Source: a virus (Duplodnaviria; Heunggongvirae; Uroviricota; Caudoviricetes). From it: a stretch of DNA of 44,753 nucleotides. Below are positions 1 through 44,377 of this stretch, piece after piece. The notes beneath the pieces are model-generated. The model saw only the letters and a program-made list of their open reading frames with translations, made no database searches and was not told the DNA's origin. The position numbers and the translations under genes were made by a program. Where the stretch lies: positions 1 to 44,753 of the IMG/VR virus record IMGVR_UViG_2917860307_000001. One strand, given 5' to 3'. Position 1 is the first letter of the stretch, and every line of letters begins with the position of its first letter.

Positions 1-474
1 ATGTACAGCCCGGTACAAATAGCCAATAAATTCATAACGTTGGGAAACCAACATCATAATCCTCTGACCCACATGCAACTGCAGAAGCTTACTTATATTG
101 CCCATGGTTACTATTTAGCATTAACAGGTAAGCCTTTGCTCAACGAATGTGTCTCTGCGTGGAAGTACGGTCCGGTTATTCCCGGAATGTACGATGCTTT
201 CAAAGATTATGGGAATAAGCCTGTTACGAATGTAGCAGTAGCTCCTTTTGGTGGCATTGTTACTATGGATCCGCAAGCAGAGAGCATTATAGGGGCTGTT
301 TATAAATTTTACGGCTCGAAAAATGGAATTGAGTTATCAACTCTAACTCATATGCCAGGTACGCCTTGGTCACAAACTTATAATGGTATTGGCTCGTCAA
401 TCATCCCAGATGATGCGATCAAGACTTATTATCATGATTTATTGAATAACCGACAGCAATGTCAGGGCCTCTGA
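1..474 (+). CDS. Panacea/DUF4065-like protein (SocA/GepA-like), putative antitoxin
   Basis: ORF beginning at window position 1 (ATG); N-terminal pattern YSPVQIANKFITLG...LTHMQLQKLTYIAHGYYLA resembles DUF4065/Panacea proteins; low-GC region; could extend upstream of the window. Confidence 0.5.
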   Translation: MYSPVQIANKFITLGNQHHNPLTHMQLQKLTYIAHGYYLALTGKPLLNECVSAWKYGPVIPGMYDAFKDYGNKPVTNVAVAPFGGIVTMDPQAESIIGAVYKFYGSKNGIELSTLTHMPGTPWSQTYNGIGSSIIPDDAIKTYYHDLLNNRQQCQGL

Positions 475-496
475 AAAAGTAATATTCAGGGATGAC

Positions 497-1045
497 ATGT
501 CTCGCAATTCAGATATCTATAAACTTATCGGAGCGGCTGCAGGTGTTGAAAATGGTCGCTCTGAAGCATCCTTAAACTATACTGACAGTCAAGAACAGGT
601 TTTTAAATCTGCATTTGAGCCGTCTAATCATGAGAGCGATGATGATTCTTCTTCAGAAAATAAAGCTATTCTGGAGGAAGAAGAGTTTGGTTCTAATACA
701 GGTGCATTGCATGAGTTTATGCAGCAGCACAGAATGGACAGTCTTCAAGCTCAGCTTGATATGCTCAAATCACAAGTACGCGATAAGATAGCTGACGCAA
801 CTGGTAAAGAAATAGACAATGAACTTCGGACAAAAATGGCATCATTCACGGTTTGGTTTATGTCGTGGTGGTGCTTATTTGTAGCCGTAATGTTTGTATC
901 GTTTCTTATTGCTCATGAAGGAAAGCCTCCAGTTGAAGCAATCGTTGCATTACTAGGTACAAGTACAATTAGCATTGTTGGTTTGGTTGGCTTCGTTGTT
1001 AGTGGATTGTTCAAATCAAGAAAAGATGGCGATAAAGAAAAATAA
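497..1045 (+). CDS. Hypothetical protein with acidic/coiled-coil N-terminus and two C-terminal transmembrane helices; putative toxin/effector partner
   Basis: 182-aa ORF 22 nt downstream of the Panacea-like gene; hydrophobic stretches FTVWFMSWWCLFVAVMFVSFLIA and AIVALLGTSTISIVGLVGFVVSGLF. Confidence 0.5.
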   Translation: MSRNSDIYKLIGAAAGVENGRSEASLNYTDSQEQVFKSAFEPSNHESDDDSSSENKAILEEEEFGSNTGALHEFMQQHRMDSLQAQLDMLKSQVRDKIADATGKEIDNELRTKMASFTVWFMSWWCLFVAVMFVSFLIAHEGKPPVEAIVALLGTSTISIVGLVGFVVSGLFKSRKDGDKEK

Positions 1046-1078
1046 CCCGTATATACACGGGTTATTCATGGTTTTAGT

Positions 1079-1960: not shown

Positions 1961-2328
1961 CACTCCACCTCCTGCTTCGGTTCTTGTATCGGCATCCATC
2001 TGATTACATCGCAATTACTTAGGTTGATGTCATCTCCAAGCCATCCTTGACCTTCAGACCAGCATTGCACGTAATACCCGCCTTCTGTGTCCACTACGCA
2101 CCACTGCGCGTCGTTCGGCATTCGCTCACTACAGCTTATCCAACCAGCCGGAGTTACCGGAGAGTTGCCAGATAGCTCGTTCAACTTGTAAGTCTGGCTT
2201 ACAGGTTCGGCTTCCAGCGAAGCTAACGCTATTTCATAAGCACGGCGCTCAATATTGTCTCGAACGTCCAGGCTCCCAATTCGCTCTTTGATTTCTTTAA
2301 TCAGTTCTTTGTCGGTAAACGTGATCAT
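1960..2328 (-). CDS. Phage hypothetical protein (DUF551-like C-terminus)
   Basis: 122-aa ORF translationally coupled to its neighbours in the leftward early operon. Confidence 0.45.
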   Translation of the reverse strand: MITFTDKELIKEIKERIGSLDVRDNIERRAYEIALASLEAEPVSQTYKLNELSGNSPVTPAGWISCSERMPNDAQWCVVDTEGGYYVQCWSEGQGWLGDDINLSNCDVIRWMPIQEPKQEVE

Positions 2329-2690
2329 TATGCTCCAGCCTCCGGTGCTTTCGGCATTACTGCCCAGTGAGTGATATTGACGTTTTCAAGGTCCCCGACC
2401 TGAAATGTCCACTGCCATTCTCCGGTTTCTTTTTGCCCCCAGGTGTACCAGAGAGAACGCCAGCCAATTAGCCAGCCTTCTCCGTTAGCATCGAATAACA
2501 AAACACTTTCATTTGCTGGTGGCAGTGCAGTTGACACTGGTATTACTTTGTTTTCCAGTGCCGCACATTTAGCTTCAAGCGCATCGAATTTACGCACCAG
2601 GTATTCAGCATCTGTTTCATTCACTTTCAGGTCTCGCGGTACACATCTCCCACGAAGAAACCCTTCCATTTCGAAAACATTCATGCGCAT
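2328..2690 (-). CDS. Phage hypothetical protein (YfdS-like, 120 aa)
   Basis: 120-aa ORF in same operon; position and size match yfdS of CPS-53-type prophages (from memory). Confidence 0.45.
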   Translation of the reverse strand: MRMNVFEMEGFLRGRCVPRDLKVNETDAEYLVRKFDALEAKCAALENKVIPVSTALPPANESVLLFDANGEGWLIGWRSLWYTWGQKETGEWQWTFQVGDLENVNITHWAVMPKAPEAGA

Positions 2691-3217
2691 TTGCGTAACT
2701 CCGATAACTCGTTAAAACGTTCCATAAACATCCCGTAGGCATGGCCCGGTGCCAGTGGAATCACTTTGAACATATCTGTTGCCGGGATACCTTCCAGTAC
2801 AGGCCAGAAAGAGCCATCATCAAGCCCGAGATCGCGGCGTTCGGTTGCCAGCATAATGAGATCGGCATATTTCACTGGCGTGCTCATAACCGGAGGTAAC
2901 CCGTATTTCTCACGGATTACGGCGTCTATTTTTTCTTCCATCCGTTTATAGTCAGGAAGAAGGCGTTTCAGTGGTGCGGGGATGTCCTGGCAATACGCTT
3001 CTGTTGCATCATGCATTAACGCTTCAAAAGCAAATTCCTGCGGCACCAGCTGGCTGCAAAGCACCGCATGTTGGGCGACGCTGTAGAAGTGAGAAAGATG
3101 ACCGGCAAAGCGGCAGATATTTGAAAGGGAAACCGCGATATCGTTAATAACGATGTCGTCTTTATTTATCTTGTCATAATAAAAATGCTTCCCGGAAAAA
3201 GTTTTAATAAATGACAT
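2681..3217 (-). CDS. yfdR: HD-domain 5'-deoxynucleotidase (YfdR-like)
   Basis: Start at MSFIKTF (ATG 3217, GGAG RBS) gives 178 aa; HD motif (LSHFYSVAQHAVL...MHDATEAY); matches K-12 YfdR size and family from memory. Confidence 0.65.
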   Translation of the reverse strand: MSFIKTFSGKHFYYDKINKDDIVINDIAVSLSNICRFAGHLSHFYSVAQHAVLCSQLVPQEFAFEALMHDATEAYCQDIPAPLKRLLPDYKRMEEKIDAVIREKYGLPPVMSTPVKYADLIMLATERRDLGLDDGSFWPVLEGIPATDMFKVIPLAPGHAYGMFMERFNELSELRKCA

Positions 3218-6827: not shown

Positions 6828-7660
6828 ACAGTTTAACGGCAAATAACCGTTTGTCGCAACAGCAGGTGGTCAGCGTCGCTGAACACCTGTTGTTACGGCA
6901 TGAATGCAGATTACCAAATCACCTGGCTGTAAGTAACCACAGAGAACTTTACCTGACTGTGGGGGGCGAGTTGTGCAGGAACTTAACCGCTGGTTTCGTG
7001 ACGGAAGAGGGCTTTATGTCCATGTTATTCGTTGGGAGCCAGAAACACAGCGCGTTATCTATCTTCGCAAAGACTACCCGCATGAGTGTTTTAGTCCTTT
7101 GTGGAAATTCAGGCGTGATTTTGTTGAGTGTGAAGGACCACCAGCACATTGATTCTGCCATTCCGGGACGTTACACTGTTCAGGCACCTTATAAAGCGGG
7201 TGCCGGGATTGGCGTCCTGGAAATGTTATCGGCGATATATGACGCGCCAGCGTCTTTTTTATCGTCTGCGTCTGCGCACACCCAAATTATGGTGGGCTGG
7301 ACGGGGGCACCGAAAGGTGCGCCGGTTTCCGATAACGCCGGTTACGCCAACCCCGTTCAGTTCACCACCAGCGAAATTGGCGTTTCCGGTGGTGAAGGTA
7401 ATTCACTGTTATCGGAGGCTGCCATCATGGCTACTGTCCCAGCCCTCTCTCGTCTGAATGATGAAGACTTACATAAACTCAGTTATGTAACAACTGCACT
7501 ACGTGCTCTGCGCAAGGTAACTCTTTCGGATCCGCAGGCGCATCAGGTTCTGGTAGAAACCCTTCTTAACTTGCAGGCTGAACGTATTCGTCTGGCGGAT
7601 AAGGCTAATTTTCATATTCACCGTCTCCTGAATATCAGCGGAGGGCATCGTCATGCTTAA
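6824..7660 (+). CDS. Hypothetical protein (possibly YdaU-like); frame integrity uncertain
   Basis: 278-aa ORF; a protein-like 59-codon alternative-frame ORF (6973-7152) begins at a G6 run at 6961-6966. Confidence 0.35.
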   Translation: MNSLTANNRLSQQQVVSVAEHLLLRHECRLPNHLAVSNHRELYLTVGGELCRNLTAGFVTEEGFMSMLFVGSQKHSALSIFAKTTRMSVLVLCGNSGVILLSVKDHQHIDSAIPGRYTVQAPYKAGAGIGVLEMLSAIYDAPASFLSSASAHTQIMVGWTGAPKGAPVSDNAGYANPVQFTTSEIGVSGGEGNSLLSEAAIMATVPALSRLNDEDLHKLSYVTTALRALRKVTLSDPQAHQVLVETLLNLQAERIRLADKANFHIHRLLNISGGHRHA

Positions 7661-11377: not shown

Positions 11378-12373
11378 GTGACCGTGAGAGCACTACTGAC
11401 CCCTGAAATTGCCCCGCGTATGGGGATCGTATTGTTCAGGCCAGGTTCAGAGCTGATGCCCCTGTTTATGCAGGGGCGTGTCCTGCTGGAGCCTGAGCCG
11501 GAACGTTATTCATCTTTCGCCAGTGGTGCCGTTCCGGCGGCATCACAACCGCTGGCGGATGATCCTGCCGTTCGGGCCGTGTTCCGCAATGAGGCAGTGA
11601 TCCGTCGTGCTGGTGGCGTGGAATGTCTTGAAAGCTGGTTACTTCGTGAAAAAGGCTGCCAATGGCCTCATTCCGACTGGCACAGCGAGAACATGACCAC
11701 AATGCGACACGCTCCGGGCGCAATCCGTCTGTGCTGGCACTGCGATAACCAGCTGCGCGATCAGTTCACGGAACGGCTGGAATCAATGGCAACGGATAAC
11801 TGTGCCCGCTGGGTGTTGTCTGTAGTCCGTCGGGATCTCGGTTTTGATGATAACCATGCCGTGACAATGCCGGAACTGTGCTGGTGGCTGATTCGTAATG
11901 ACCTGGCGGATGCCTTACCTGAAAGCGCAGCCCGTAAGGCGCTGAGATTACCGAAACCTGCTGTGCCGTCTGTCACCCGGGAAAGTGACCTTGTGCCTTC
12001 GGTTCCTGCCACCAGCATCATCCAGGATAAAGCGAAAAATGTGCTGGCGCTGAAAGTGGATCCGGAGTCGCCGGAGTCTTTTATGTTACGCCCAAAACGC
12101 CGCCGCTGGGTTAATGAAAAGTACACGCGCTGGGTTAAGACACAGCCGTGTGCATGTTGTGGAAAGCCTGCTGATGATCCCCACCACCTGATAGGCCACG
12201 GTCAGGGTGGAATGGGTACAAAAGCGCATGACCTCTTTGTGTTGCCTTTGTGCAGAAAGCATCACGACGAGCTGCATGCGGATACCGTGGCATTTGAAGA
12301 GAAGTATGGCTCTCAGCTGGAGCTGATATTTCGTTTTATCGATCGTGCGCTGGCAATTGGCGTATTGGCGTAA
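11378..12373 (+). CDS. DUF968 domain protein
   Basis: GTG start; C-terminal Cys/His cluster PCACCGKPADDPHHLIGHG...LPLCRKHHDELH typical of DUF968 nin-region proteins. Confidence 0.6.
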   Translation: MTVRALLTPEIAPRMGIVLFRPGSELMPLFMQGRVLLEPEPERYSSFASGAVPAASQPLADDPAVRAVFRNEAVIRRAGGVECLESWLLREKGCQWPHSDWHSENMTTMRHAPGAIRLCWHCDNQLRDQFTERLESMATDNCARWVLSVVRRDLGFDDNHAVTMPELCWWLIRNDLADALPESAARKALRLPKPAVPSVTRESDLVPSVPATSIIQDKAKNVLALKVDPESPESFMLRPKRRRWVNEKYTRWVKTQPCACCGKPADDPHHLIGHGQGGMGTKAHDLFVLPLCRKHHDELHADTVAFEEKYGSQLELIFRFIDRALAIGVLA

Positions 12374-12386
12374 GTGGAGAACGAGC

Positions 12387-12941
12387 ATGAACCTTGAAGC
12401 CTTACCAAAATATTACTCCCCAAAATCTCCAAAATTGAGCGATGACGCACCGGCGACAGGCTCAGGTGGTTTAACGATTACGGATGTGATGGCTGCGCAG
12501 GGGATGGTGCAGTCGAAAGCACCGCTTGGGTTTGCCTTATTCCTGGCAAAAGTTGGTGTTCAGGATCCTCAATTTGCGATTGAAGGTCTGCTCAATTACG
12601 CGATGGCACTGGATAACCCGACATTGAACAAATTGAGTGAAGAAACCCGGTTACAGATCATCCCTTACCTTGTGAATTTTGCCTTTGCTGATTATTCCAG
12701 GTCTGCGGCAAGTAAGGCTCGCTGTGAGCATTGTGCTGGTACTGGATTTCATAATGTATTGCGCGAAGTGGTGAAACACTCCAGAAGCGGGGAATCTGTT
12801 ATCAAGGAAGAGTGGGTGAAGGAACTATGTCAGCATTGCCATGGTAAGGGAGAAGTCAGCACAGCGTGCAGAGGGTGTAAGGGTAAAGGTATTGTCCTGG
12901 ATGAAAAAAAGAACCCGGCTTCATGGTGTGCCTGTTTATAA
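12387..12941 (+). CDS. Antitermination protein Q (as read, terminates early; see downstream +1-frame fragment)
   Basis: Start MNLEALPKYY (ATG 12387); three CxxCxGxG zinc-finger repeats; position upstream of PR'-like promoter and lysis genes. Confidence 0.6.
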   Translation: MNLEALPKYYSPKSPKLSDDAPATGSGGLTITDVMAAQGMVQSKAPLGFALFLAKVGVQDPQFAIEGLLNYAMALDNPTLNKLSEETRLQIIPYLVNFAFADYSRSAASKARCEHCAGTGFHNVLREVVKHSRSGESVIKEEWVKELCQHCHGKGEVSTACRGCKGKGIVLDEKKNPASWCACL

Positions 12942-13140
12942 GATTTGTGGGCGTTGCAATGGCAACCGGTTTAGCCGTTTACCAACCACACTGGCGCGGC
13001 ATCATGTCCAGAAACTGGTACCGGACCTGACGGATTATCAGTGGTACAAAGGATATGCAGACGTTATTAATAAACTGGTTACAAAGTGCTGGCAGGAAGA
13101 AGCGTATGCTGAATCGCAATTGAGAAAAGTGACAAGATAG
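12901..13140 (+). CDS. Probable C-terminal fragment of antiterminator Q in the +1 frame
   Basis: Overlapping ORF in +1 frame beginning at the A7 run (12904-12910); carries a fourth CxxCxG repeat (CGRCNGNR). Confidence 0.35.
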   Translation: MKKRTRLHGVPVYKICGRCNGNRFSRLPTTLARHHVQKLVPDLTDYQWYKGYADVINKLVTKCWQEEAYAESQLRKVTR

Positions 13141-13268: not shown

Positions 13269-13428
13269 TTGTGCCTGATGTCTCATGAAACTATGAAATG
13301 GATTGGTGCGTTAAACATTTTTTCTTATTATCTTTTAGATTTTGGAGAGATGGTTAACGTCTGTATTCCAGAAACTCGATGGTTATTTAATAAATTAGTT
13401 TCAATGATGCTTCTAGGTTATGACTGTA

Positions 13429-13827
13429 ATGAAAAAGGTATTAATAGCAGCGATAGGTTTTTGTTTAGTTGGTTGTGCAGGTATGAAATTACCTGAGTAT
13501 TCGCAAGTTAAAGCAAGTCCGTATTATACAGATTGCCGTGCGTTTGCCATGGATGTTTATAAAAATGATGGATACAGCAAAATTGCGAAAACTACTATCC
13601 TTAGCATGGATGATGTGAAGGCTAGATATATTGTGACAGGGTGTGTAGTTGCTATGGGGAAAAACACTGTAGAGGAAATCAAAGCTGATCTCTCTGCTAA
13701 AGGGAGTTCTTTTGGGCTTATCAGTGGAGCTTGTTCTAGTGTGGCATGTCGGGTTGATGTAGAGCAGCAAATGAACGCTTATGTACTTGGTAGTTATTAT
13801 GCTGCAAATAAAAAAATTCCCGGATAA
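13429..13827 (+). CDS. Lipoprotein (moron)
   Basis: Signal peptide with lipobox MKKVLIAAIGFCLVGCAG; markedly low-GC gene flanked by terminators; alternative start at 13420. Confidence 0.6.
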   Translation: MKKVLIAAIGFCLVGCAGMKLPEYSQVKASPYYTDCRAFAMDVYKNDGYSKIAKTTILSMDDVKARYIVTGCVVAMGKNTVEEIKADLSAKGSSFGLISGACSSVACRVDVEQQMNAYVLGSYYAANKKIPG

Positions 13828-14423: not shown

Positions 14424-15476
14424 ATGAAAAATACTGTAAAAATAAACAGTGTTGATTTAATCAACGCTGATTGCCTGCATTTTATTCAGTCCCTGCCTGA
14501 TGATTCCATTGACCTGATTGTTACCGATCCGCCGTACTTCAAGGTGAAACCCAACGGCTGGGACAATCAGTGGAAAGGGGACGAAGATTACCTTAAGTGG
14601 CTGGACCACTGTCTGGCCCAGTTCTGGCGGGTGTTAAAACCTGCCGGAAGCCTTTACCTGTTCTGTGGGCATCGCCTGGCATCTGATATTGAGATCATGA
14701 TGCGTGAACGTTTCAACGTGCTTAACCATATCATCTGGGCGAAGCCGTCCGGACGTTGGAATGGGTGTAATAAAGAAAGTCTGCGCGCATATTTTCCTGC
14801 CACAGAGCGCGTTCTGTTTGCTGAACATTACCAAGGGCCATATCGCGGCAAAAGTGACGGCTATGCGGCAAAAGAAAGGGAACTCAAACAGCACATAATG
14901 GCACCGCTGATATCGTATTTCAGGGATGCTCGTGCCGAACTGGGTATAACGGCAAAACAAATTGCCGAAGCCACAGGTAAGAAAAATATGGTTTCCCACT
15001 GGTTTGGTGCCAGTCAGTGGCAGTTGCCGAATGAGGCTGACTATCGGAAGTTACAGGCACTGTTTTCCCGTATAGCGGCAGAGAAGTTTCAGGAACAACA
15101 ACTGGAACAACCACACCACCAGCTGGTGGCATCTTATGATTCACTGAATCGCAAATATTCTGAATTGCTGGATGAGTTTAAATCTCTCCGGCGCTATTTC
15201 TCCGTATCAGTCTCCGTGCCTTATACCGATGTCTGGATGCATAAACCCGTTCAGTTCTACCCGGGTAAACATCCGTGTGAGAAACCGGCGGATATGCTCA
15301 GGCAAATAATCAATGCCAGTAGTCGACCTGGTGATCTGGTTGCTGATTTTTTTATGGGATCCGGTTCCACAATAAAAGCAGCAATGGCGCTGGGGCGTCG
15401 GGCCTTAGGTGTTGAGCTTGAGTCAGAGCGGTTTAACCAGACAGTGAAAGAGATAAACGAGCTGGTGGGGAAATAA
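14424..15476 (+). CDS. Orphan DNA methyltransferase (N6-adenine/N4-cytosine family, DPPY motif)
   Basis: 350 aa; motif IVTDPPYF near the N-terminus and a C-terminal AdoMet-binding-like region (DFFMGSGST). Confidence 0.8.
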
Positions 15477-16132: not shown

Positions 16133-16666
16133 ATGAGCGCAAAAATCAAATACGGCCTGTCAGCTGCTGTTCTGGCGCTGATTGCTGCAGGCGCGTCTGC
16201 TCCTCAAATACTTGACCAGTTTCTGGATGAAAAAGAGGGTAACCACACTACGGCATACCGCGATGGTTCCGGTATATGGACCATCTGTCGTGGTGCCACA
16301 ATGGTGGATGGTAAGCCCGTCATACCGGGAATGAAGCTGTCGAAGGAAAAATGCGACCAGGTTAACGCTATTGAACGTGATAAGGCGCTGGCATGGGTGG
16401 AGCGCAATATTAAAGTACCACTGACCGAACCACAGAAAGCGGGTATAGCGTCATTTTGTCCCTATAACATTGGCCCCGGTAAGTGTTTCCCGTCGACGTT
16501 TTATAAGCGGCTGAATGCCGGTGATCGTAAGGGCGCATGCGAGGCGATTCGCTGGTGGATAAAAGATGGTGGGCGCGATTGCCGCATACGTTCAAATAAC
16601 TGCTATGGACAGGTTATTCGTCGTGACCAGGAAAGCGCATTAGCCTGTTGGGGGATAGATCAGTGA
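16133..16666 (+). CDS. SAR endolysin (phage lysozyme with N-terminal signal-anchor-release domain)
   Basis: 177 aa; N-terminal hydrophobic SAR segment [17 protein letters not shown] followed by a lysozyme-like domain with the EG-x-T-AYRD catalytic-region pattern. Confidence 0.8.
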
Positions 16667-37713: not shown

Positions 37714-37724
37714 GTGGAGTGGAT

Positions 37725-40082
37725 ATGGCAGCAGTAAAAATCTCAGGTGTGCTGAAAGATGGTGCGGGTAAACCAATACAGAACTGCACTATTCAACTGA
37801 AGGCAAAGCGTAACAGCACCACGGTACTGGTGAACACGGTGGCCTCTGAAAATCCGGATGAAGCCGGGCGTTACAGCATGGATGTTGAGTATGGCCAGTA
37901 CAGCGTCATCCTGCTGGTTGAAGGTTTTCCGCCTTCACATGCCGGGACCATTACCGTCTATGAAGGCTCCAGACCAGGTACGCTGAATGATTTTCTCGGT
38001 GCCATGACGGAAGATGATGTCATGCCGGAGGCATTGCGTCGTTTTGAGGCAATGGTGGAAGAAGCGGCACGCAACGCCGAAGCCGCCTCTCAGAGCGCAG
38101 CGGCGGCAAAGAAATCCGAAACTGCAGCGGCATCATCGAAGAACGCGGCGAAAACCTCAGAAACGAATGCAGCTAACAGCGCACAGGCGGCAGCGTCCTC
38201 GCAGACTGCATCGGCAAACTCCGCGACAGCAGCCAAAAAATCAGAAACCAACGCGAAAAACAGTGAGACAGCCGCAAAGACGAGCGAAACCAACGCAAAG
38301 TCCAGCCAGACGGCAGCGAAAACAAGCGAAACGAATGCCAAAGCCAGTGAAACTGCGGCGAAAAGCAGTCAGGATGCAGCAGCCGAAAGCGAGAGTGCTG
38401 CAGCTGGTTCTGCGACTTCAGCAGCTGGATCAGCAACTGCTGCGGCTAACAGCCAGAAAGCCGCGAAGACGAGCGAAACTAACGCAAAGTCCAGCCAGAC
38501 GGCAGCGAAGACCAGCGAAACGAATGCCAAAGCCAGCGAAACTGCGGCGAAAAACAGTCAGGATGCAGCAGCCCAAAGCGAGAGTGCCGCAGCTGGTTCT
38601 GCAACAGCGGCAGCTAATAGCCAAAAAGCTGCAAAAACCAGTGAAACTAACGCAAAGACGAGTGAAACAAAAGCAGCAGCCAGCGAGACAGAAGCAACGT
38701 CAGCCGCAACAAGAGCAGAGAATGCAGCCCGGATTGCAGAAGATGCCGCTGATCCTGCTTCTGTCCCTCCGCTTCCTGATATCTGGCTACCCTTGAATGA
38801 TTCTCTGGAAGCGATAACAGGGTATGCCCCGGGCTATAAAACAATAACCATCGGCAGTGATGAAATAACAATGCCTGTTAATGGCATATGCCAATTTAGC
38901 CGGGCTTCATCTGCAACGTATATTGATAAGTCCGGGCATATTACCGTGGCAGGGAATAACGTTCCTCGTTTTGAAAAATATGGTTTGCTGATAGAGAATC
39001 AGCGAACAAACATGTTCGTAAATAGTTTTAATCCTGATGCCTGGAATAAAAGCGGTGGTATATCTGTAACATCATCAACAGATGAATTTGAGTTTAAATA
39101 TGGACGTTTCACGGTAGGAAGCGATATAGCAGGAACGACAACAGGGAGAAATATATGCACAGTTGCTGGTAACAAAGGCATAGATGTGACTGGCGATGAT
39201 CAGTACAGTAAAGGTCCGTATGTTACCGCGTCGTTCAGGGTAAGAAGTGATCTCAATGTTCGCGCACGTATCCGTTTTGAACGGTATAACTCGGAAGGAT
39301 ACACCTTCCTTTGCGACGCCTATTTGTCATTACAGACCCATGAACTACAAATTACTGGTGGCAATGCCCAGCTATTAACAGCAAACTTTGAAATCGATCC
39401 AGGTAGTGGATGGATATACTTTCAGGCAACACTGAAATGTCTGCCAGAATGGGGAATGGTTGGTACGCAGCTGCAAATTGCAGCCGACAGAGCTGTGGGG
39501 TCTTTTGCAACAGGTGACTGGATAGAAGTAACCACCCCGCAATTCGAGTATGGTGCTTGTGCAACTTCCTTCATCATAACGACAACTGAGCCAGCGACTC
39601 GTGCATCAGATTTATGTAAATTTCCGCTGATGAAAAATATGTATACCATGCCTTTTACGTTCATGGTGGAAGTCCATAAAAACTGGTTTATTTCTCATAA
39701 TGCGGCACCGCGTGTCATTGATTCAGAAAATCACCAGTCCGGAGGCCCATTTATTATGGGGTTTGGTTCTTCTGGAACTATTAGTCAGGACGGTTATTCG
39801 TATTGCGATATAGGCGGGGCTAACCGACGTGTATATGAGTCATGCGGAGTAAGAGATCTTGTTATGGGATTCAGGGTTAAGGCTGACGGCATGACATGCT
39901 CATTTGCAAATAAGCATATAAGCACAGAAACAAAAACAGTATGGAAATATATTCGTGAAGCTGCTGTGATTCGTATCGGGGGACAAACGACGACAGGATT
40001 ACGACACCTTAATGGTCATATAAAAAACCTCCGTTTCTGGAACAGAGCATTGTCAGATACGCAGCTTAAGGAATACGTATAA
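37725..40082 (+). CDS. Side tail fibre protein (lambda Stf-like N-terminus, repetitive shaft, LamG-like C-terminal domain)
   Basis: N-terminus AVKISGVLKDGAGKPIQNCTIQLKAKRNSTTVLVNTV parallels lambda Stf; Ala/Ser/Thr/Lys-rich repeats; C-terminal motif GHIKNLRFWNRALSDTQLKEY typical of LamG-type jelly-roll domains. Confidence 0.75.
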   Translation: MAAVKISGVLKDGAGKPIQNCTIQLKAKRNSTTVLVNTVASENPDEAGRYSMDVEYGQYSVILLVEGFPPSHAGTITVYEGSRPGTLNDFLGAMTEDDVMPEALRRFEAMVEEAARNAEAASQSAAAAKKSETAAASSKNAAKTSETNAANSAQAAASSQTASANSATAAKKSETNAKNSETAAKTSETNAKSSQTAAKTSETNAKASETAAKSSQDAAAESESAAAGSATSAAGSATAAANSQKAAKTSETNAKSSQTAAKTSETNAKASETAAKNSQDAAAQSESAAAGSATAAANSQKAAKTSETNAKTSETKAAASETEATSAATRAENAARIAEDAADPASVPPLPDIWLPLNDSLEAITGYAPGYKTITIGSDEITMPVNGICQFSRASSATYIDKSGHITVAGNNVPRFEKYGLLIENQRTNMFVNSFNPDAWNKSGGISVTSSTDEFEFKYGRFTVGSDIAGTTTGRNICTVAGNKGIDVTGDDQYSKGPYVTASFRVRSDLNVRARIRFERYNSEGYTFLCDAYLSLQTHELQITGGNAQLLTANFEIDPGSGWIYFQATLKCLPEWGMVGTQLQIAADRAVGSFATGDWIEVTTPQFEYGACATSFIITTTEPATRASDLCKFPLMKNMYTMPFTFMVEVHKNWFISHNAAPRVIDSENHQSGGPFIMGFGSSGTISQDGYSYCDIGGANRRVYESCGVRDLVMGFRVKADGMTCSFANKHISTETKTVWKYIREAAVIRIGGQTTTGLRHLNGHIKNLRFWNRALSDTQLKEYV
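38275..38640 (+). repeat. Two tandem imperfect copies of an approx 170-190 bp unit within the tail fibre gene
   Basis: Repeated DNA encoding KTSETNAKSSQTAAKTSETNAKASETAAK(S/N)SQDAAA(E/Q)SESAAAGSAT...; one copy carries an extra 21-nt insert. Confidence 0.6.
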
Positions 40083-41843: not shown

Positions 41844-42092
41844 TTAATGAACAAACCACTCGTCAGCAGACTCCCAGGTATCTTTCAGAGTTTCCTGAAC
41901 AAAAGTTTTAGCTGAATCTTTATCGGCGGTGCGCGTAACAGAAAGGCCATCGTTGCTGGTGGCTTTTACGATCACCTCTACATCGTCATAACGCTTACTG
42001 ATGCGTCGAGTTAATTCTTCCTTCAACGCATCCACAGCACCGTTTGGCATTTTAGTCATTTTCTCTTTGGCTATGCAGATCTCAATACGCAT
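41844..42092 (-). CDS. dinI: DinI-like DNA damage-inducible protein
   Basis: 82 aa; MRIE..IAK...P.GA.DAL..EL.RRI......V....A..N.LSV......D......ETWESAD.WFV pattern matching DinI. Confidence 0.75.
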
Positions 42093-42153: not shown

Positions 42154-43251
42154 TCAAGAGGTCTTATTTCTGCTCCTTTGGAGTTCTTCAAAACGATTAT
42201 GTAAAGATTTTGGATACAGTTCGGTATATACCTGCCATAGCACGTTTAATGAACGATGCCCTGTAACCTGGGCGACTTCCTCAATACTAAAACCAGCCTC
42301 AAATAAGCGACTTGCCCCTTCTCTACGCAAATCATGGTATCGCAGATCTTTAATACCTAATTTGCTTCTTACCCTCTGAAATCCTGCGGTAACAGAAGTG
42401 CTGTTGTATGGAAAAATGAATTCAGATTTTTTGGGTTGTCGTTGGACGATATCCCAGGCTTCCCCAAGCAAGGCCACTTTCATATGGTTACCTTCCTTTT
42501 TACGTGGATCTTTCCTGTCTCTTACTAGTATAGATTTTTGTTCCTGGTCGAGATCTTCCCATCGTAACCGGCATACTTCTCCGATTCGCATACAGGACCA
42601 CACAGAAAATTTGAGGATATCAACGAACGGAATTTTTGAGCATTTATGAGTAGATCGTTGTTGAAGGCCTTCAATGAGCATGTCTAGTTCATCAGATGCT
42701 GGTCTACGATTACGACGATTTGATTTACCAATTAAACCAAGTTTAAGTAGATATGGACGAGCGGCTTTTGCTGGGTTTGATGTGTAATTAATTCCGTATA
42801 CAGGTTTGGCTGCATCCAGAACACTGCCAAGATAACTAACATCGTGGCTAACAGTAGCTGGACCTGCACCGGCGTTGTTTCTCAACCTGCAATGTTCTAT
42901 TACGTCATTTTCTGTTAATTCAGATAGTCTGATCGCAGAAATGTCACTATCCATAAGTAGTTCCAGCACATATCTTTTAGTGCGGCCTGCTTTACCTCCT
43001 GCATTTGGATCATTTAAATATTTGTGTAGCAAATCACGGACAGTAAGGCCGTCAATCTCGCTTGATGATGGGATTCCATACAAATCTAGTTCCATCACTT
43101 TCTGTGTACCCCATGTTTTGGCATGAGCATGTTTGGGAAAGGTTTTACTTTCCCTGTAAGTGATGACACCTTTTTCTTTAATAATCACGGTGCAACGATA
43201 GCGTGGTGTGCCATCGGATTTTAGCCGTTTCTCTATGTTATAGTACGCCAT
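42154..43251 (-). CDS. int: Tyrosine integrase (dusA-associated type)
   Basis: 365 aa; C-terminal catalytic-region pattern (R...HDLRR...VTGHRSL...Y); adjacent to and divergent from dusA. Confidence 0.85.
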   Translation of the reverse strand: MAYYNIEKRLKSDGTPRYRCTVIIKEKGVITYRESKTFPKHAHAKTWGTQKVMELDLYGIPSSSEIDGLTVRDLLHKYLNDPNAGGKAGRTKRYVLELLMDSDISAIRLSELTENDVIEHCRLRNNAGAGPATVSHDVSYLGSVLDAAKPVYGINYTSNPAKAARPYLLKLGLIGKSNRRNRRPASDELDMLIEGLQQRSTHKCSKIPFVDILKFSVWSCMRIGEVCRLRWEDLDQEQKSILVRDRKDPRKKEGNHMKVALLGEAWDIVQRQPKKSEFIFPYNSTSVTAGFQRVRSKLGIKDLRYHDLRREGASRLFEAGFSIEEVAQVTGHRSLNVLWQVYTELYPKSLHNRFEELQRSRNKTS

Positions 43252-43339: not shown

Positions 43340-44377
43340 ATGCACGATAATCATGAAACACAAAAAATTAATCAAACCAGCGTGATGCCTGAAAAAACTG
43401 GTGTTTACTGGAATTCTCGGTTTAGCATTGCTCCTATGCTCGACTGGACGGACAGACACTGCCGTTATTTCCTGCGTCTGCTCTCCCGTAATACGCTGCT
43501 CTATACCGAAATGGTGACCACAGGGGCGATTATTCACGGTAAAGGTGATTACCTGGCATACAGTGAAGAAGAGCATCCGGTGGCGTTGCAGTTGGGCGGT
43601 AGCGATCCGGCGGCGCTGGCGCAGTGTGCGAAGCTGGCAGAAGCGCGCGGATATGATGAGATCAACCTGAATGTTGGCTGCCCGTCAGACCGGGTACAGA
43701 ACGGCATGTTTGGCGCGTGCCTGATGGGGAATGCGCAACTGGTGGCTGACTGCGTAAAAGCGATGCGCGACGTAGTGTCGATTCCAGTGACGGTGAAAAC
43801 GCGTATTGGCATTGACGACCAGGACAGCTATGAATTTCTCTGTGATTTTATCGACACTGTTTCCGGCAAAGGCGAATGCGAGATGTTTATTATCCATGCG
43901 CGCAAAGCCTGGCTTTCTGGTTTAAGTCCGAAAGAAAACCGTGAGATCCCGCCGCTCGATTACCCGCGTGTCTATCAACTGAAGCGTGATTTCCCGCATC
44001 TGACTATGTCGATTAACGGCGGCATCAAGTCACTGGAAGAGGCTAAAGCACACCTGCAACATATGGATGGCGTGATGGTCGGGCGTGAAGCGTATCAAAA
44101 CCCAGGCATTCTGGCGGCGGTGGATCGAGAGATATTTGGTTCCTCGGATACCGATGCCGATCCGGTGGCGGTGGTACGAGCTATGTATCCGTACATTGAG
44201 CGTGAACTCAGCCAGGGGACGTATCTCGGTCATATCACCCGGCATATGCTGGGGCTGTTCCAGGGGATTCCTGGTGCGCGGCAGTGGCGGCGGTATTTAA
44301 GTGAAAATGCCCATAAAGCGGGCGCTGACATTAACGTGCTGGAACATGCGCTCAAACTGGTAGCGGATAAGCGTTAA
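43340..44377 (+). CDS. dusA: tRNA-dihydrouridine synthase A
   Basis: 345 aa; conserved [17 protein letters not shown]... DusA sequence; first approx 30 residues look prophage-derived. Confidence 0.9.

Follow-up and report, generated by a model that had tools for sequence, protein, structure and literature searches.

A phage-borne gene pair, very probably an allele of the validated Escherichia coli PanA-PanT toxin-antitoxin system, in the att-xis cargo slot of a dusA-integrating lambdoid prophage

The closest described system is the "PanA/PanT Esc. col." pair of Kurata et al. 2022 (PNAS 119:e2102212119; PMC8832971), which consists of the antitoxin WP_000287252.1 and the toxin WP_000019185.1. 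The pair comes from E. coli STEC O31 and was assigned to toxin cluster T3; its row in the supplement reads 'A|T, 22', meaning that the antitoxin gene precedes the toxin gene with a gap of 22 nt, and the locus is flagged there as 'NotPhage'. Expression of this PanT halts growth, and transcription, translation and replication stop together. The toxin depolarises the inner membrane and admits SYTOX Green, which indicates large pores, and co-expressed PanA neutralises it (PMC8832971, Table 1 and Fig. 2B). HokB was the comparison control in that study. Neutralisation by PanA persists in the absence of the ClpXP and Lon proteases, and a PanA:PanT complex was demonstrated by pull-down in five PanAT systems other than that of E. 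coli. The form of PanA proven to act as an antitoxin is 157 aa long, and a GPV motif is functionally important in PanA(Vib. har.) (PMC8832971).

A second system of the same general design is PanT_D11/T12:PanA of Bartonella choladocola (apis), in which the partner of a stand-alone Panacea antitoxin is likewise a toxin with a charged N-terminus and with transmembrane (TM) helices at its C-terminus. The Bartonella toxin depolarises the membrane and admits SYTOX (Kurata 2022; Ernits et al. 2023, PMC10440598). Mutagenesis of the PanT_D11:PanA pair revealed direct neutralisation by the stand-alone Panacea domain, acting through the Panacea core, and the substitutions Y56A and H120E abolish it (PMC10440598). 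The Bartonella toxin belongs to a different cluster, and according to Kurata et al. homology between T3 and T12 is possible, not demonstrated. The Panacea/DUF4065 domain is also carried by SocA of the type VI toxin-antitoxin system SocA-SocB of Caulobacter crescentus. There, however, the antitoxin serves as an adaptor for ClpXP and the target of SocB is the sliding clamp of DNA polymerase, whereas neutralisation by PanA is independent of ClpXP and Lon. Lambda RexA-RexB, HokB, TisB and RmrT of RosmerTA follow an analogous logic, in which the membrane-depolarising effector of a prophage or mobile element is restrained by a partner and its action ends in energy collapse. Even here there are differences, since RexA activates RexB whereas PanA inhibits its toxin, and Hok and TisB belong to type I systems, in which antisense RNA exerts the control. 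Pfam, PHROG, PADLOC and PDB sequence searches gave no sequence relationship between RexAB, HokB, TisB or RmrT and PanA-PanT.

The DNA considered here (the window) is the whole 44,753-nt stretch of the virus record IMGVR_UViG_2917860307_000001. The relevant features are as follows, the last two being context.

1..474, plus strand: panA (ORF1), stand-alone Panacea (DUF4065) antitoxin, 157 aa (PF13274 match; 153/157 to WP_000287252.1)
475..496, plus strand: panA-panT intergenic spacer, 22 nt, AAAAGTAATATTCAGGGATGAC (identical in the validated locus)
497..1045, plus strand: panT (ORF2), membrane toxin of cluster T3, 182 aa (173/182 to WP_000019185.1; phrog_13343)
842..916, plus strand: PanT TM helix 1, about aa 116-140 (hydropathy; AlphaFold2 helix, pLDDT 77-85)
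938..1012, plus strand: PanT TM helix 2, about aa 148-172, ALLGTSTISIVGLVGFVVSGLFK (hydropathy, AlphaFold2, homologue alignment)
1041..1067, no strand assigned: bidirectional terminator-like hairpin AATAACCCGTATATACACGGGTTATT between the convergent panT and xis genes, right edge of the cassette (in the window, and at the same site in contig L004)
1079..1378, minus strand: xis, PrtN-like excisionase, annotated as 90 aa in relatives (PF11112, 81.8 bits; phrog_1300 excisionase)
42154..43251, minus strand: dusA-type tyrosine integrase at the opposite prophage end, adjoining intact dusA (43340-44377)

Positions 1-1045 are very probably an allele of the experimentally validated type II pair. The two antitoxins are 97% identical and the two toxins 95%, the DNA of the window is about 96% identical to the validated locus (43 mismatches in 1100 aligned bases), and gene order and the 22-nt spacer are alike. 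The terminator and the chromosomal position, at a dusA prophage end, are also common to both, and WP_000287252.1 and WP_000019185.1 are the RefSeq annotation at the syntenic locus of E. coli STEC1588 (NZ_CP129263). Compared with the validated allele, both genes show purifying selection (dN/dS of 0.09 for panA and 0.13 for panT). The four substitutions in PanA (positions 126, 136, 137 and 142) all lie in the C-terminal tail, beyond a Panacea region (27-123) that is 100% identical, and the nine in PanT are divided among the variable N-terminus (six), the helix (one) and TM1 (two, C124W and G131V).

A preliminary description of this DNA had proposed that ORF1 is a Panacea antitoxin that neutralises a membrane-depolarising toxin encoded by ORF2, and exactly this has been demonstrated for the 95-97% identical pair (PMC8832971, Table 1, Fig. 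5). The same description called the pair 'possibly undescribed', which was mistaken. The pair was published and validated in 2022 (as T3 in the Kurata supplement), and GenBank PV340566 (phage PhiR47_1) already names both genes PanA and PanT; hence it is not new. The abortive-infection pairing that the description also suggested is a candidate role. The SNIPE preprint, which used phage PhiR47.1, does not discuss the PanA/PanT annotation of PV340566. Re-identification of a published toxin-antitoxin pair adds little by itself, and the points that its context adds are modest.

The assignment of ORF1 to Panacea/DUF4065, made at first from the sequence alone, was borne out by a profile search: residues 27-123 match profile positions 1-112 of 113 in PF13274 (SocA_Panacea), scoring 66.2 bits where the cut-off is 25.7 (E=6.2e-18). 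A PDB sequence search with PanA returned no match. The conserved residues of PanA include W54, GPV 57-59, H117 and T121-P122-W123, which do not vary among the partners of distant PanT homologues. G57-P58-V59 is invariant across six PanA partners of PanT homologues, and among homologous pairs the divergence of PanA parallels that of PanT, with GPV, H117 and TPW unchanged throughout. In comparison with the mutationally tested Bartonella antitoxin, Y56 and H117 of the window protein stand in corresponding motifs, an equivalence that motif context suggests.

Position 1 of the window is the A of the panA ATG. The window begins exactly at this start codon; it therefore contains the whole ORF, while the ribosome-binding site and promoter of panA fall outside. 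The 157-aa start is preceded by the Shine-Dalgarno sequence GAGGAGG at a spacing of 6 nt, and the true start of ORF1, which had been marked for checking, was thereby settled as that of the 157-aa protein. A 162-aa form, beginning at the sole in-frame ATG upstream (15 nt away) and present in one database entry (P0004), was also considered; it was rejected because its ATG overlaps the GAGGAGG that serves the 157-aa start.

The domain common to PanA and SocA raises the question of whether PanA acts as a SocA-like (type VI) proteolytic adaptor that passes PanT to ClpXP. There is indeed an NCBIfam match between PanA and SocA_antitoxin, but at 99.7 bits it is sub-threshold and far under the equivalog cut-off of 190 (NF047745), and PanT, a membrane protein, bears no relation to SocB. 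The adaptor reading is largely refuted by the finding that PanA still neutralises in strains without ClpXP and Lon (PMC8832971), and we consider it very unlikely.

The general layout of ORF2 had been anticipated as a 22-nt gap followed by a 182-aa protein with an acidic, coiled-coil-like N-terminal region and two C-terminal transmembrane helices. The spacer is exactly 22 nt long (475-496). In a Kyte-Doolittle scan with a 19-residue window, values above 1.6 are confined to about 114-142 and 145-172; these two TM segments agree with the AlphaFold2 helices, and residues 1-115 contain 23 D/E versus 12 K/R, for a net charge of -11. The coiled-coil wording is only loosely supported, by a long amphipathic helix and a sub-threshold match to SlyX, while the acidic character and the two helices stand as described. 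PanT matches phrog_13343 over its full length (2e-112); it matches no Pfam family above cut-off, has no informative NCBIfam match, and its profile finds no match among PDB sequences. Weak Pfam matches to DUF2207_C, DUF677, 7tm_6, DUF2975 and SlyX (12-17 bits against cut-offs of 25-33) were set aside as compositional or driven by the TM segments.

The AlphaFold2 model of PanT, computed from a 42-sequence alignment, shows disorder at 18-52 and a long helix at 68-139 that continues into TM1, followed by a loop (140-145) and TM2 (146-177). Its confidence is low: the mean pLDDT is 59.7 and its pTM 0.28, with 68-85 for the TM hairpin, and its secondary structure alone was used. Across the family the N-terminus is variable and the juxtamembrane helix carries the invariant motif G103-x-x-I-D-N-x-L-R; all 32 invariant family columns are kept in the window protein. 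Small residues abound in TM2, which hardly varies among homologues whose overall identity is 32-45%.

In the mechanism that we propose, PanT of the window would be anchored by its C-terminal two-helix hairpin, and the glycine/serine-rich, almost invariant TM2 might mediate oligomerisation into a pore. PanA, a bare Panacea domain, would bind the cytosolic N-terminal and juxtamembrane parts of PanT and so keep the toxin inactive. The contact site proposed for PanA is modelled on the mutationally tested Bartonella PanT_D11:PanA pair, and we likewise infer the pore and the oligomer. A small, two-TM, phage-encoded protein with no Pfam family above threshold could in principle be something else, such as a holin-like lysis factor or a superinfection exclusion protein whose adjacency to ORF1 is incidental. 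However, the lysis cassette of this phage is about 15 kb away (endolysin at 16133-16666), a Panacea gene is linked at every one of the 15 homologous loci, whose phage backgrounds are unrelated, and toxicity of the 95% identical protein, with rescue specific to PanA, has been published (PMC8832971). A non-toxin identity for ORF2 is therefore barely credible.

The panAT pair occupies a swappable cargo slot in a dusA-integrating lambdoid prophage, bounded by attL on one side and xis on the other. Integrase, intact dusA and pspG are found at the right end of the window, and related chromosomes carry a 105-bp fragment from the 5' part of dusA about 305 nt upstream of panA. In sibling phages the att-xis slot holds a YafO-family pair or other ORFs in place of panAT, and homology with siblings of different cargo stops about 63 nt past the att core. 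On the other side of the slot, xis is the first conserved phage gene and lies beside different cargo in PhiR55_1, PhiR40_1 and mEp460. The suggestion that the pair sits near a prophage end, in a low-GC block, thus agrees with both the att context and the base composition (40.2% GC at 1-1078 versus 50.9% at 1079-43251).

Three sequenced phages (PhiR47_1, phiSTEC1575-Stx2k and 1720a-02) carry the pair, as do 79 of 5426 complete E. coli genomes, each in single copy. PanAT(Esc. col.) carries the flag 'NotPhage' in the supplement, whereas the copy in the window is clearly prophage cargo. What is new here is that this validated pair is cargo of inducible dusA-integrating lambdoid phages, one of them Stx2k-converting. 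Its swappable slot, its predicted promoter, and the placement and conserved TM2 and juxtamembrane motif of the PanT family are likewise new context.

As cargo, panAT is a self-contained cassette of about 1.3 kb, with its own consensus sigma-70 promoter and the terminator hairpin listed above. The predicted promoter, a consensus match in related and source contigs, is a perfect TTGACA-16-TATAAT located 160 nt upstream of the panA ATG, just outside the window (in the zero-mismatch contig L029 and also in L004). ACAGTG/CACTGT repeats flank this promoter and were considered as a candidate operator. Of six copies in 6.1 kb, four lie within 181 nt; the whole-locus count is only marginally unusual, being reached by 3 of 200 shuffles, and PanA has no DNA-binding domain, which leaves the repeats as a side observation.

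The surroundings of related pairs bear on the role of the cassette. A 153-157-aa PF13274 gene lies directly upstream in all eight distinct PanT homologues examined (33-66% identity, 15 loci). The homologues occur across Enterobacterales, mostly in the accessory slots of P2-like prophages. In the slot between gpA and portal, the neighbours of homologous pairs are an RVT_1 reverse-transcriptase gene (L014) or DUF4145, and in L012 a homologous pair adjoins a type I restriction-modification system. We take this P2 gpA-to-portal slot to correspond to the tin/old defence hotspot of Rousset et al. 2022.

We picture panAT as being expressed in the lysogen, so that loss or inactivation of PanA would kill or arrest the cell. 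The trigger would most likely be infection by another phage, that is, abortive infection, with prophage stabilisation as the alternative. A role in prophage-encoded abortive infection or exclusion is compatible with the membrane mechanism set out above, and we judge its chance to fall somewhat short of even. The invading phage would inactivate or titrate PanA, with Panacea as the sensor, or block its resynthesis, and freed PanT would depolarise the membrane before the invader's cycle ends. This role is favoured by the alternative toxin-antitoxin pairs in the slot of sibling phages and by the neighbours of the homologous pairs, and an independent strong promoter would fit a module that the lysogen expresses. 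A sensory role for Panacea is preferred by the NetFlax authors, who also demonstrated phage defence by a RosmerTA pair of that network, one with a membrane toxin (PMC10440598). Against it, PADLOC-DB v2.0.0 has no match to PanT and just a spurious 10.8-bit match of PanA to a type I restriction enzyme model, and the neighbourhood case is guilt by association over 15 loci. A search of the accessible literature found no phage-defence test of a PanAT/DUF4065 membrane pair.

Alternatively, the cassette could be a prophage addiction or stabilisation module, or a selfish hitch-hiking toxin-antitoxin pair, with no anti-phage function. Loss of the prophage would then deprive the cell of labile PanA, and residual PanT would kill. 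Such behaviour is classical for type II pairs on mobile elements, the cassette lies at the extreme end of the prophage and adjoins att, and its single-copy occurrence in a small set of E. coli genomes is consistent with a mobile selfish element. However, this reading presupposes a difference in stability between PanA and PanT, and neutralisation is independent of Lon and ClpXP (PMC8832971). In addition, killing after prophage loss would bring limited benefit, because an excised phage normally kills the cell anyway. On this evidence a purely addictive or selfish role seems unlikely, though by no means negligibly so.

Returning to abortive infection, we suggest tentatively, and with more doubt than assurance, that PanAT is one of several interchangeable lysogen-expressed cassettes rather than a housekeeping chromosomal toxin-antitoxin system. 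It would be shared between the att-xis slot of dusA-integrating lambdoid phages, including Stx2k-converting ones, and the gpA-portal slot of P2-like phages, and Panacea would sense a phage cue and release a pore-forming toxin whose pore is built from TM2. If the abortive-infection and sensing reading is true, it would provide the first defined trigger and role for the 'hyperpromiscuous' Panacea domain. The YafO-family and other cargo in the siblings' slot, together with the homologues in P2-like slots, make a phage-defence test worthwhile, and the locus is a convenient E. coli model for what Panacea senses and what PanAT pairs do.

The toxin family itself is wider than the loci discussed so far. 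A profile search of 1.84 billion proteins recovered distant relatives of PanT, the count of strict linkage to a Panacea gene covering the 15 loci alone. Distant PanT-like proteins with two TM segments number roughly 330. With its near-invariant TM2 and juxtamembrane motif, the PanT family extends to several hundred uncharacterised small two-TM proteins.

The gene pair at the left end of the window is, to judge from its sequence, an allele of a toxin-antitoxin system that has already been published and experimentally characterised. The antitoxin gene (panA), the toxin gene (panT) and their right-hand neighbours are arranged as follows.

1-474, + strand: panA (ORF1), 157 aa; the first base of the window is that of the panA ATG
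between 1-474 and 497-1045: panA-panT spacer, 22 nt
497-1045, + strand: panT (ORF2), 182 aa
1041-1067: terminator-like hairpin between the convergent panT and xis
1079-1378, - strand: PrtN-like excisionase gene (xis), to the right of panAT

The preliminary description took ORF1 for a Panacea/DUF4065 protein, and the HMM search that it proposed bears this out: Pfam PF13274 (SocA_Panacea, formerly DUF4065) matches residues 27-123 at 66.2 bits, against a cut-off of 25.7. The 22-nt gap and the 182-aa second protein are both present as reported. The Pfam search returned no above-threshold family for ORF2, and phrog_13343 (function unknown) spans it from end to end. The acidic N-terminal part and two C-terminal transmembrane helices ascribed to this protein are confirmed by a charge count (23 acidic and 12 basic residues in 1-115), by a Kyte-Doolittle scan, whose two hydrophobic segments span roughly residues 116-140 and 148-172, and by AlphaFold2. 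The AlphaFold2 model, built from 42 homologues and of low overall confidence (mean pLDDT 59.7), shows residues 18-52 as disordered and 68-139 as a long helix continuing into the first transmembrane helix (TM1); a short loop (EGKPP) and the second (TM2, 146-177) follow. Of the described features of ORF2, only the phrase "coiled-coil-like" for the N-terminal region is loosely supported.

Kurata et al. (2022, PMC8832971) verified nine Panacea pairs experimentally, one of which is "PanA Esc. col.-PanT Esc. col." from E. coli STEC O31, with antitoxin WP_000287252.1, toxin WP_000019185.1 and the mode of action given as "membrane". Their supplementary table places this pair in toxin cluster T3, in antitoxin-then-toxin order with a 22-nt gap. 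The assignment of the window pair as an allele of this system follows from three results: the two accessions are the RefSeq entries at the syntenic locus of strain STEC1588; the window DNA is collinear with that locus, with identical spacer and terminator; and the proteins are identical at 153/157 positions for PanA (all four changes in the C-terminal tail, none in the Panacea match) and 173/182 for PanT. Both genes are under purifying selection, with dN/dS against the validated allele of 0.09 for panA and 0.13 for panT. The window sequence itself is matched without a mismatch over 4045 nt by contig PDIF01000060.1 of GCA_004745355.1, and its PanT sequence appears in a record from Escherichia sp. 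E2748. The panAT block is found in 79 of 5426 complete E. coli genomes, each time chromosomal and in single copy, and in three phages by megablast against phage records. PhiR47_1 (PV340566) annotates the two genes as "PanA antitoxin" and "PanT toxin"; with this label and the published work in place, the suggestion that the pairing might be undescribed does not hold.

In the published experiments the near-identical PanT was toxic in E. coli, shut down methionine, uridine and thymidine incorporation indiscriminately, and strongly depolarised the membrane, as read out with DiSC3(5). SYTOX Green entered PanT-expressing cells, an effect that the authors attribute to large pores, and cognate PanA rescued the cells (PMC8832971). 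These data match the proposal of a membrane-depolarising toxin paired with a Panacea antitoxin; that identification was correct, and the system was already known. ClpXP and Lon are dispensable for neutralisation by PanA proteins (PMC8832971), and in this the PanAs differ from SocA-like adaptors and are therefore not adaptors of that kind. The PanA:PanT pull-downs in the same study cover five pairs other than the E. coli one. For Bartonella PanT_D11, which is compositionally similar to the window PanT, the predicted complex has the bare Panacea domain of PanA touching the unstructured N-terminus and a short pre-TM helix, and neutralisation is lost with Y56A and H120E (Ernits et al. 2023, PMC10440598). 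Compared with Y56 and H120 of Bartonella PanA, the window PanA has Y56 immediately preceding GPV and H117 within "LTHMPGTPW". In the PanA partners of PanT homologues, GPV, W54, H117 and TPW do not vary. By analogy with the Bartonella pair, PanA would neutralise the window PanT directly and stoichiometrically.

Conservation within PanT was read from an alignment of 29-42 homologues, in which the acidic N-terminus can hardly be aligned at all. Three parts are invariant in proteins whose overall identity is only 32-45%: the juxtamembrane motif G103-x-x-I-D-N-x-L-R-x-x-x-A, TM1 positions T118, F121, M122, W125, C126, F128 and V129, and nearly the whole of TM2 (window 938-1012; ALLGTSTISIVGLVGFVVSGLFK). 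This invariant, small-residue-rich TM2 may pack helix-to-helix in an oligomeric pore. Homologues with identities as low as about 33% are spread across the Enterobacterales (Klebsiella, Salmonella, Enterobacter, Providencia, Pantoea, Serratia and Cronobacter), and each of the eight distinct homologues looked up (15 loci) has a PF13274 gene of 153-157 aa immediately upstream. PanA identity drops in parallel with that of PanT (72, 58, 44 and 44%), arguing that the pair moves and diverges as a unit. These homologues occupy the following sites.

five sites: P2-like prophages, in the stretch from the replication gene gpA to the portal gene, with a reverse-transcriptase gene as neighbour once and DUF4145 once
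one site: within a phage tail module
one site: a prophage-chromosome junction
one site: adjoining a type I restriction-modification system
one site: an island adjoining smpB

Searching 1.84 billion cluster representatives with a PanT profile gave 332 matches at E<=1e-3, of which 42 reach E<=1e-10. Many of the distant matches are 100-145 aa long with two transmembrane segments, only the helix and two-TM part being aligned, and they share a "...GLVGF..KGLFG" ending; no Pfam family was found for these distant proteins. One remote member has a sub-threshold match to the CyanoTRADDas_TM two-TM domain.

These genes lie at the right end of the window.

42154-43251, - strand: tyrosine integrase
43340-44377: intact dusA
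with the integrase and dusA: pspG

In related chromosomes and the zero-mismatch contig, the left flank runs zur, a truncated dusA 5' fragment, the att core, about 305 nt and panA. The two ends together identify a dusA-integrating lambdoid prophage, in which panAT is located between attL and the excisionase gene. The low-GC block described near the prophage end is likewise real (40.2% in panAT, 50.9% in the remaining prophage). The window edge coincides with the gene boundary, and the panA promoter lies outside it; the upstream 307 nt are found in the zero-mismatch contig (L029, 2198-2504) and in a related sequence with the locus (L004, 2194-2500). Both contain a candidate promoter, a perfect TTGACA-16-TATAAT some 160 nt ahead of the ATG, and a Shine-Dalgarno sequence (GAGGAGG) 6 nt ahead of it. 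Four ACAGTG/CACTGT copies within 181 nt, in AAACA(C/G)(T/A)GTGA-like repeats, flank the candidate promoter; they could be an operator, although PanA itself lacks a DNA-binding domain. The truncated dusA' fragment of the host has the same orientation as panAT, so that transcription starting at the dusA promoter could continue into panAT, though only in the lysogen.

The interval between att and xis holds different cargo in sibling phages, of which PhiR55_1 and PhiR40_1 show about 97% identity across 80% of the neighbouring 24 kb.

window 1-1078: panAT
PhiR55_1 (L018) 206-1196 and PhiR40_1 (L019) 222-1212: a two-gene cassette; the first gene encodes a protein of 179 aa that matches nothing in Pfam, the second a YafO-family toxin (PF13957, 1.9e-21)
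mEp460 (L020) 2241-3144: two other uncharacterised ORFs, 177 and 57 aa

Homology among the three types stops about 63 nt past the att core, which, with the differing cargo, argues for a swap-in position; the panAT cassette appears to carry its own promoter. Further two-gene systems could be sought in this attP-xis slot, a cargo hotspot. In the published table the E. coli locus (row GCF_000281775.1) carries the flag "NotPhage" (PMC8832971). In every instance examined (six chromosomes and three phage genomes), however, panAT sits at one end of a lambdoid prophage integrated at dusA, and the Stx2k-converting phage phiSTEC1575-Stx2k is among the carriers; the locus is phage-borne, and the flag is corrected accordingly.

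The remaining interest of panAT is as prophage cargo with a candidate defence role. PADLOC has no defence model for PanA or PanT, and a literature search found neither a published test of biological role for the E. coli pair nor a phage-challenge experiment on any PanAT membrane pair. Abortive infection is the most attractive reading, tentatively held, given the cargo-slot position, the neighbours in P2-like phages, the independent candidate promoter and the sensor role suggested for Panacea by the NetFlax authors (PMC10440598). The main alternative is that panAT serves prophage addiction, or plain selfish persistence.

Elsewhere in the window, the late antiterminator gene Q (12345-13140) is split into two overlapping ORFs, one of 198 aa (phrog_127 positions 1-177) and one of 99 aa (positions 175-252). 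The split is a +1 frameshift from one extra A in an A-run (A7 at about 12898-12904; A6 in the intact PhiR47_1 Q). Either the extra base is a sequencing error or Q is truly inactivated, which would leave the prophage defective in late gene expression. Between Q and the lysis genes, the stx position in Stx-converting relatives, lie an ORF of unknown function (13420-13827, +, 135 aa, 38% GC, phrog_4748) and a DNA methyltransferase gene (14424-15476, +); this interval has no tRNA genes, against four in PhiR47_1. Gathering-level Rfam matches to the isrK Hfq-binding RNA (7184-7260, +, 63.7 bits) and C4 antisense RNA (7285-7372, +, 82.8 bits) point to a P1/P7-type antisense immunity module at 7184-7372, within the lambdoid early region. 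A DinI homologue is encoded at 41844-42092. Long tandem repeats rich in Ala, Ser and Thr (such as KTSETNAK and SSQTAA) occur in the tail-fibre gene (37719-40082, +); they account for a strong AT-skew spike of 0.39 at 38-39 kb and for spurious long ORFs in other frames.
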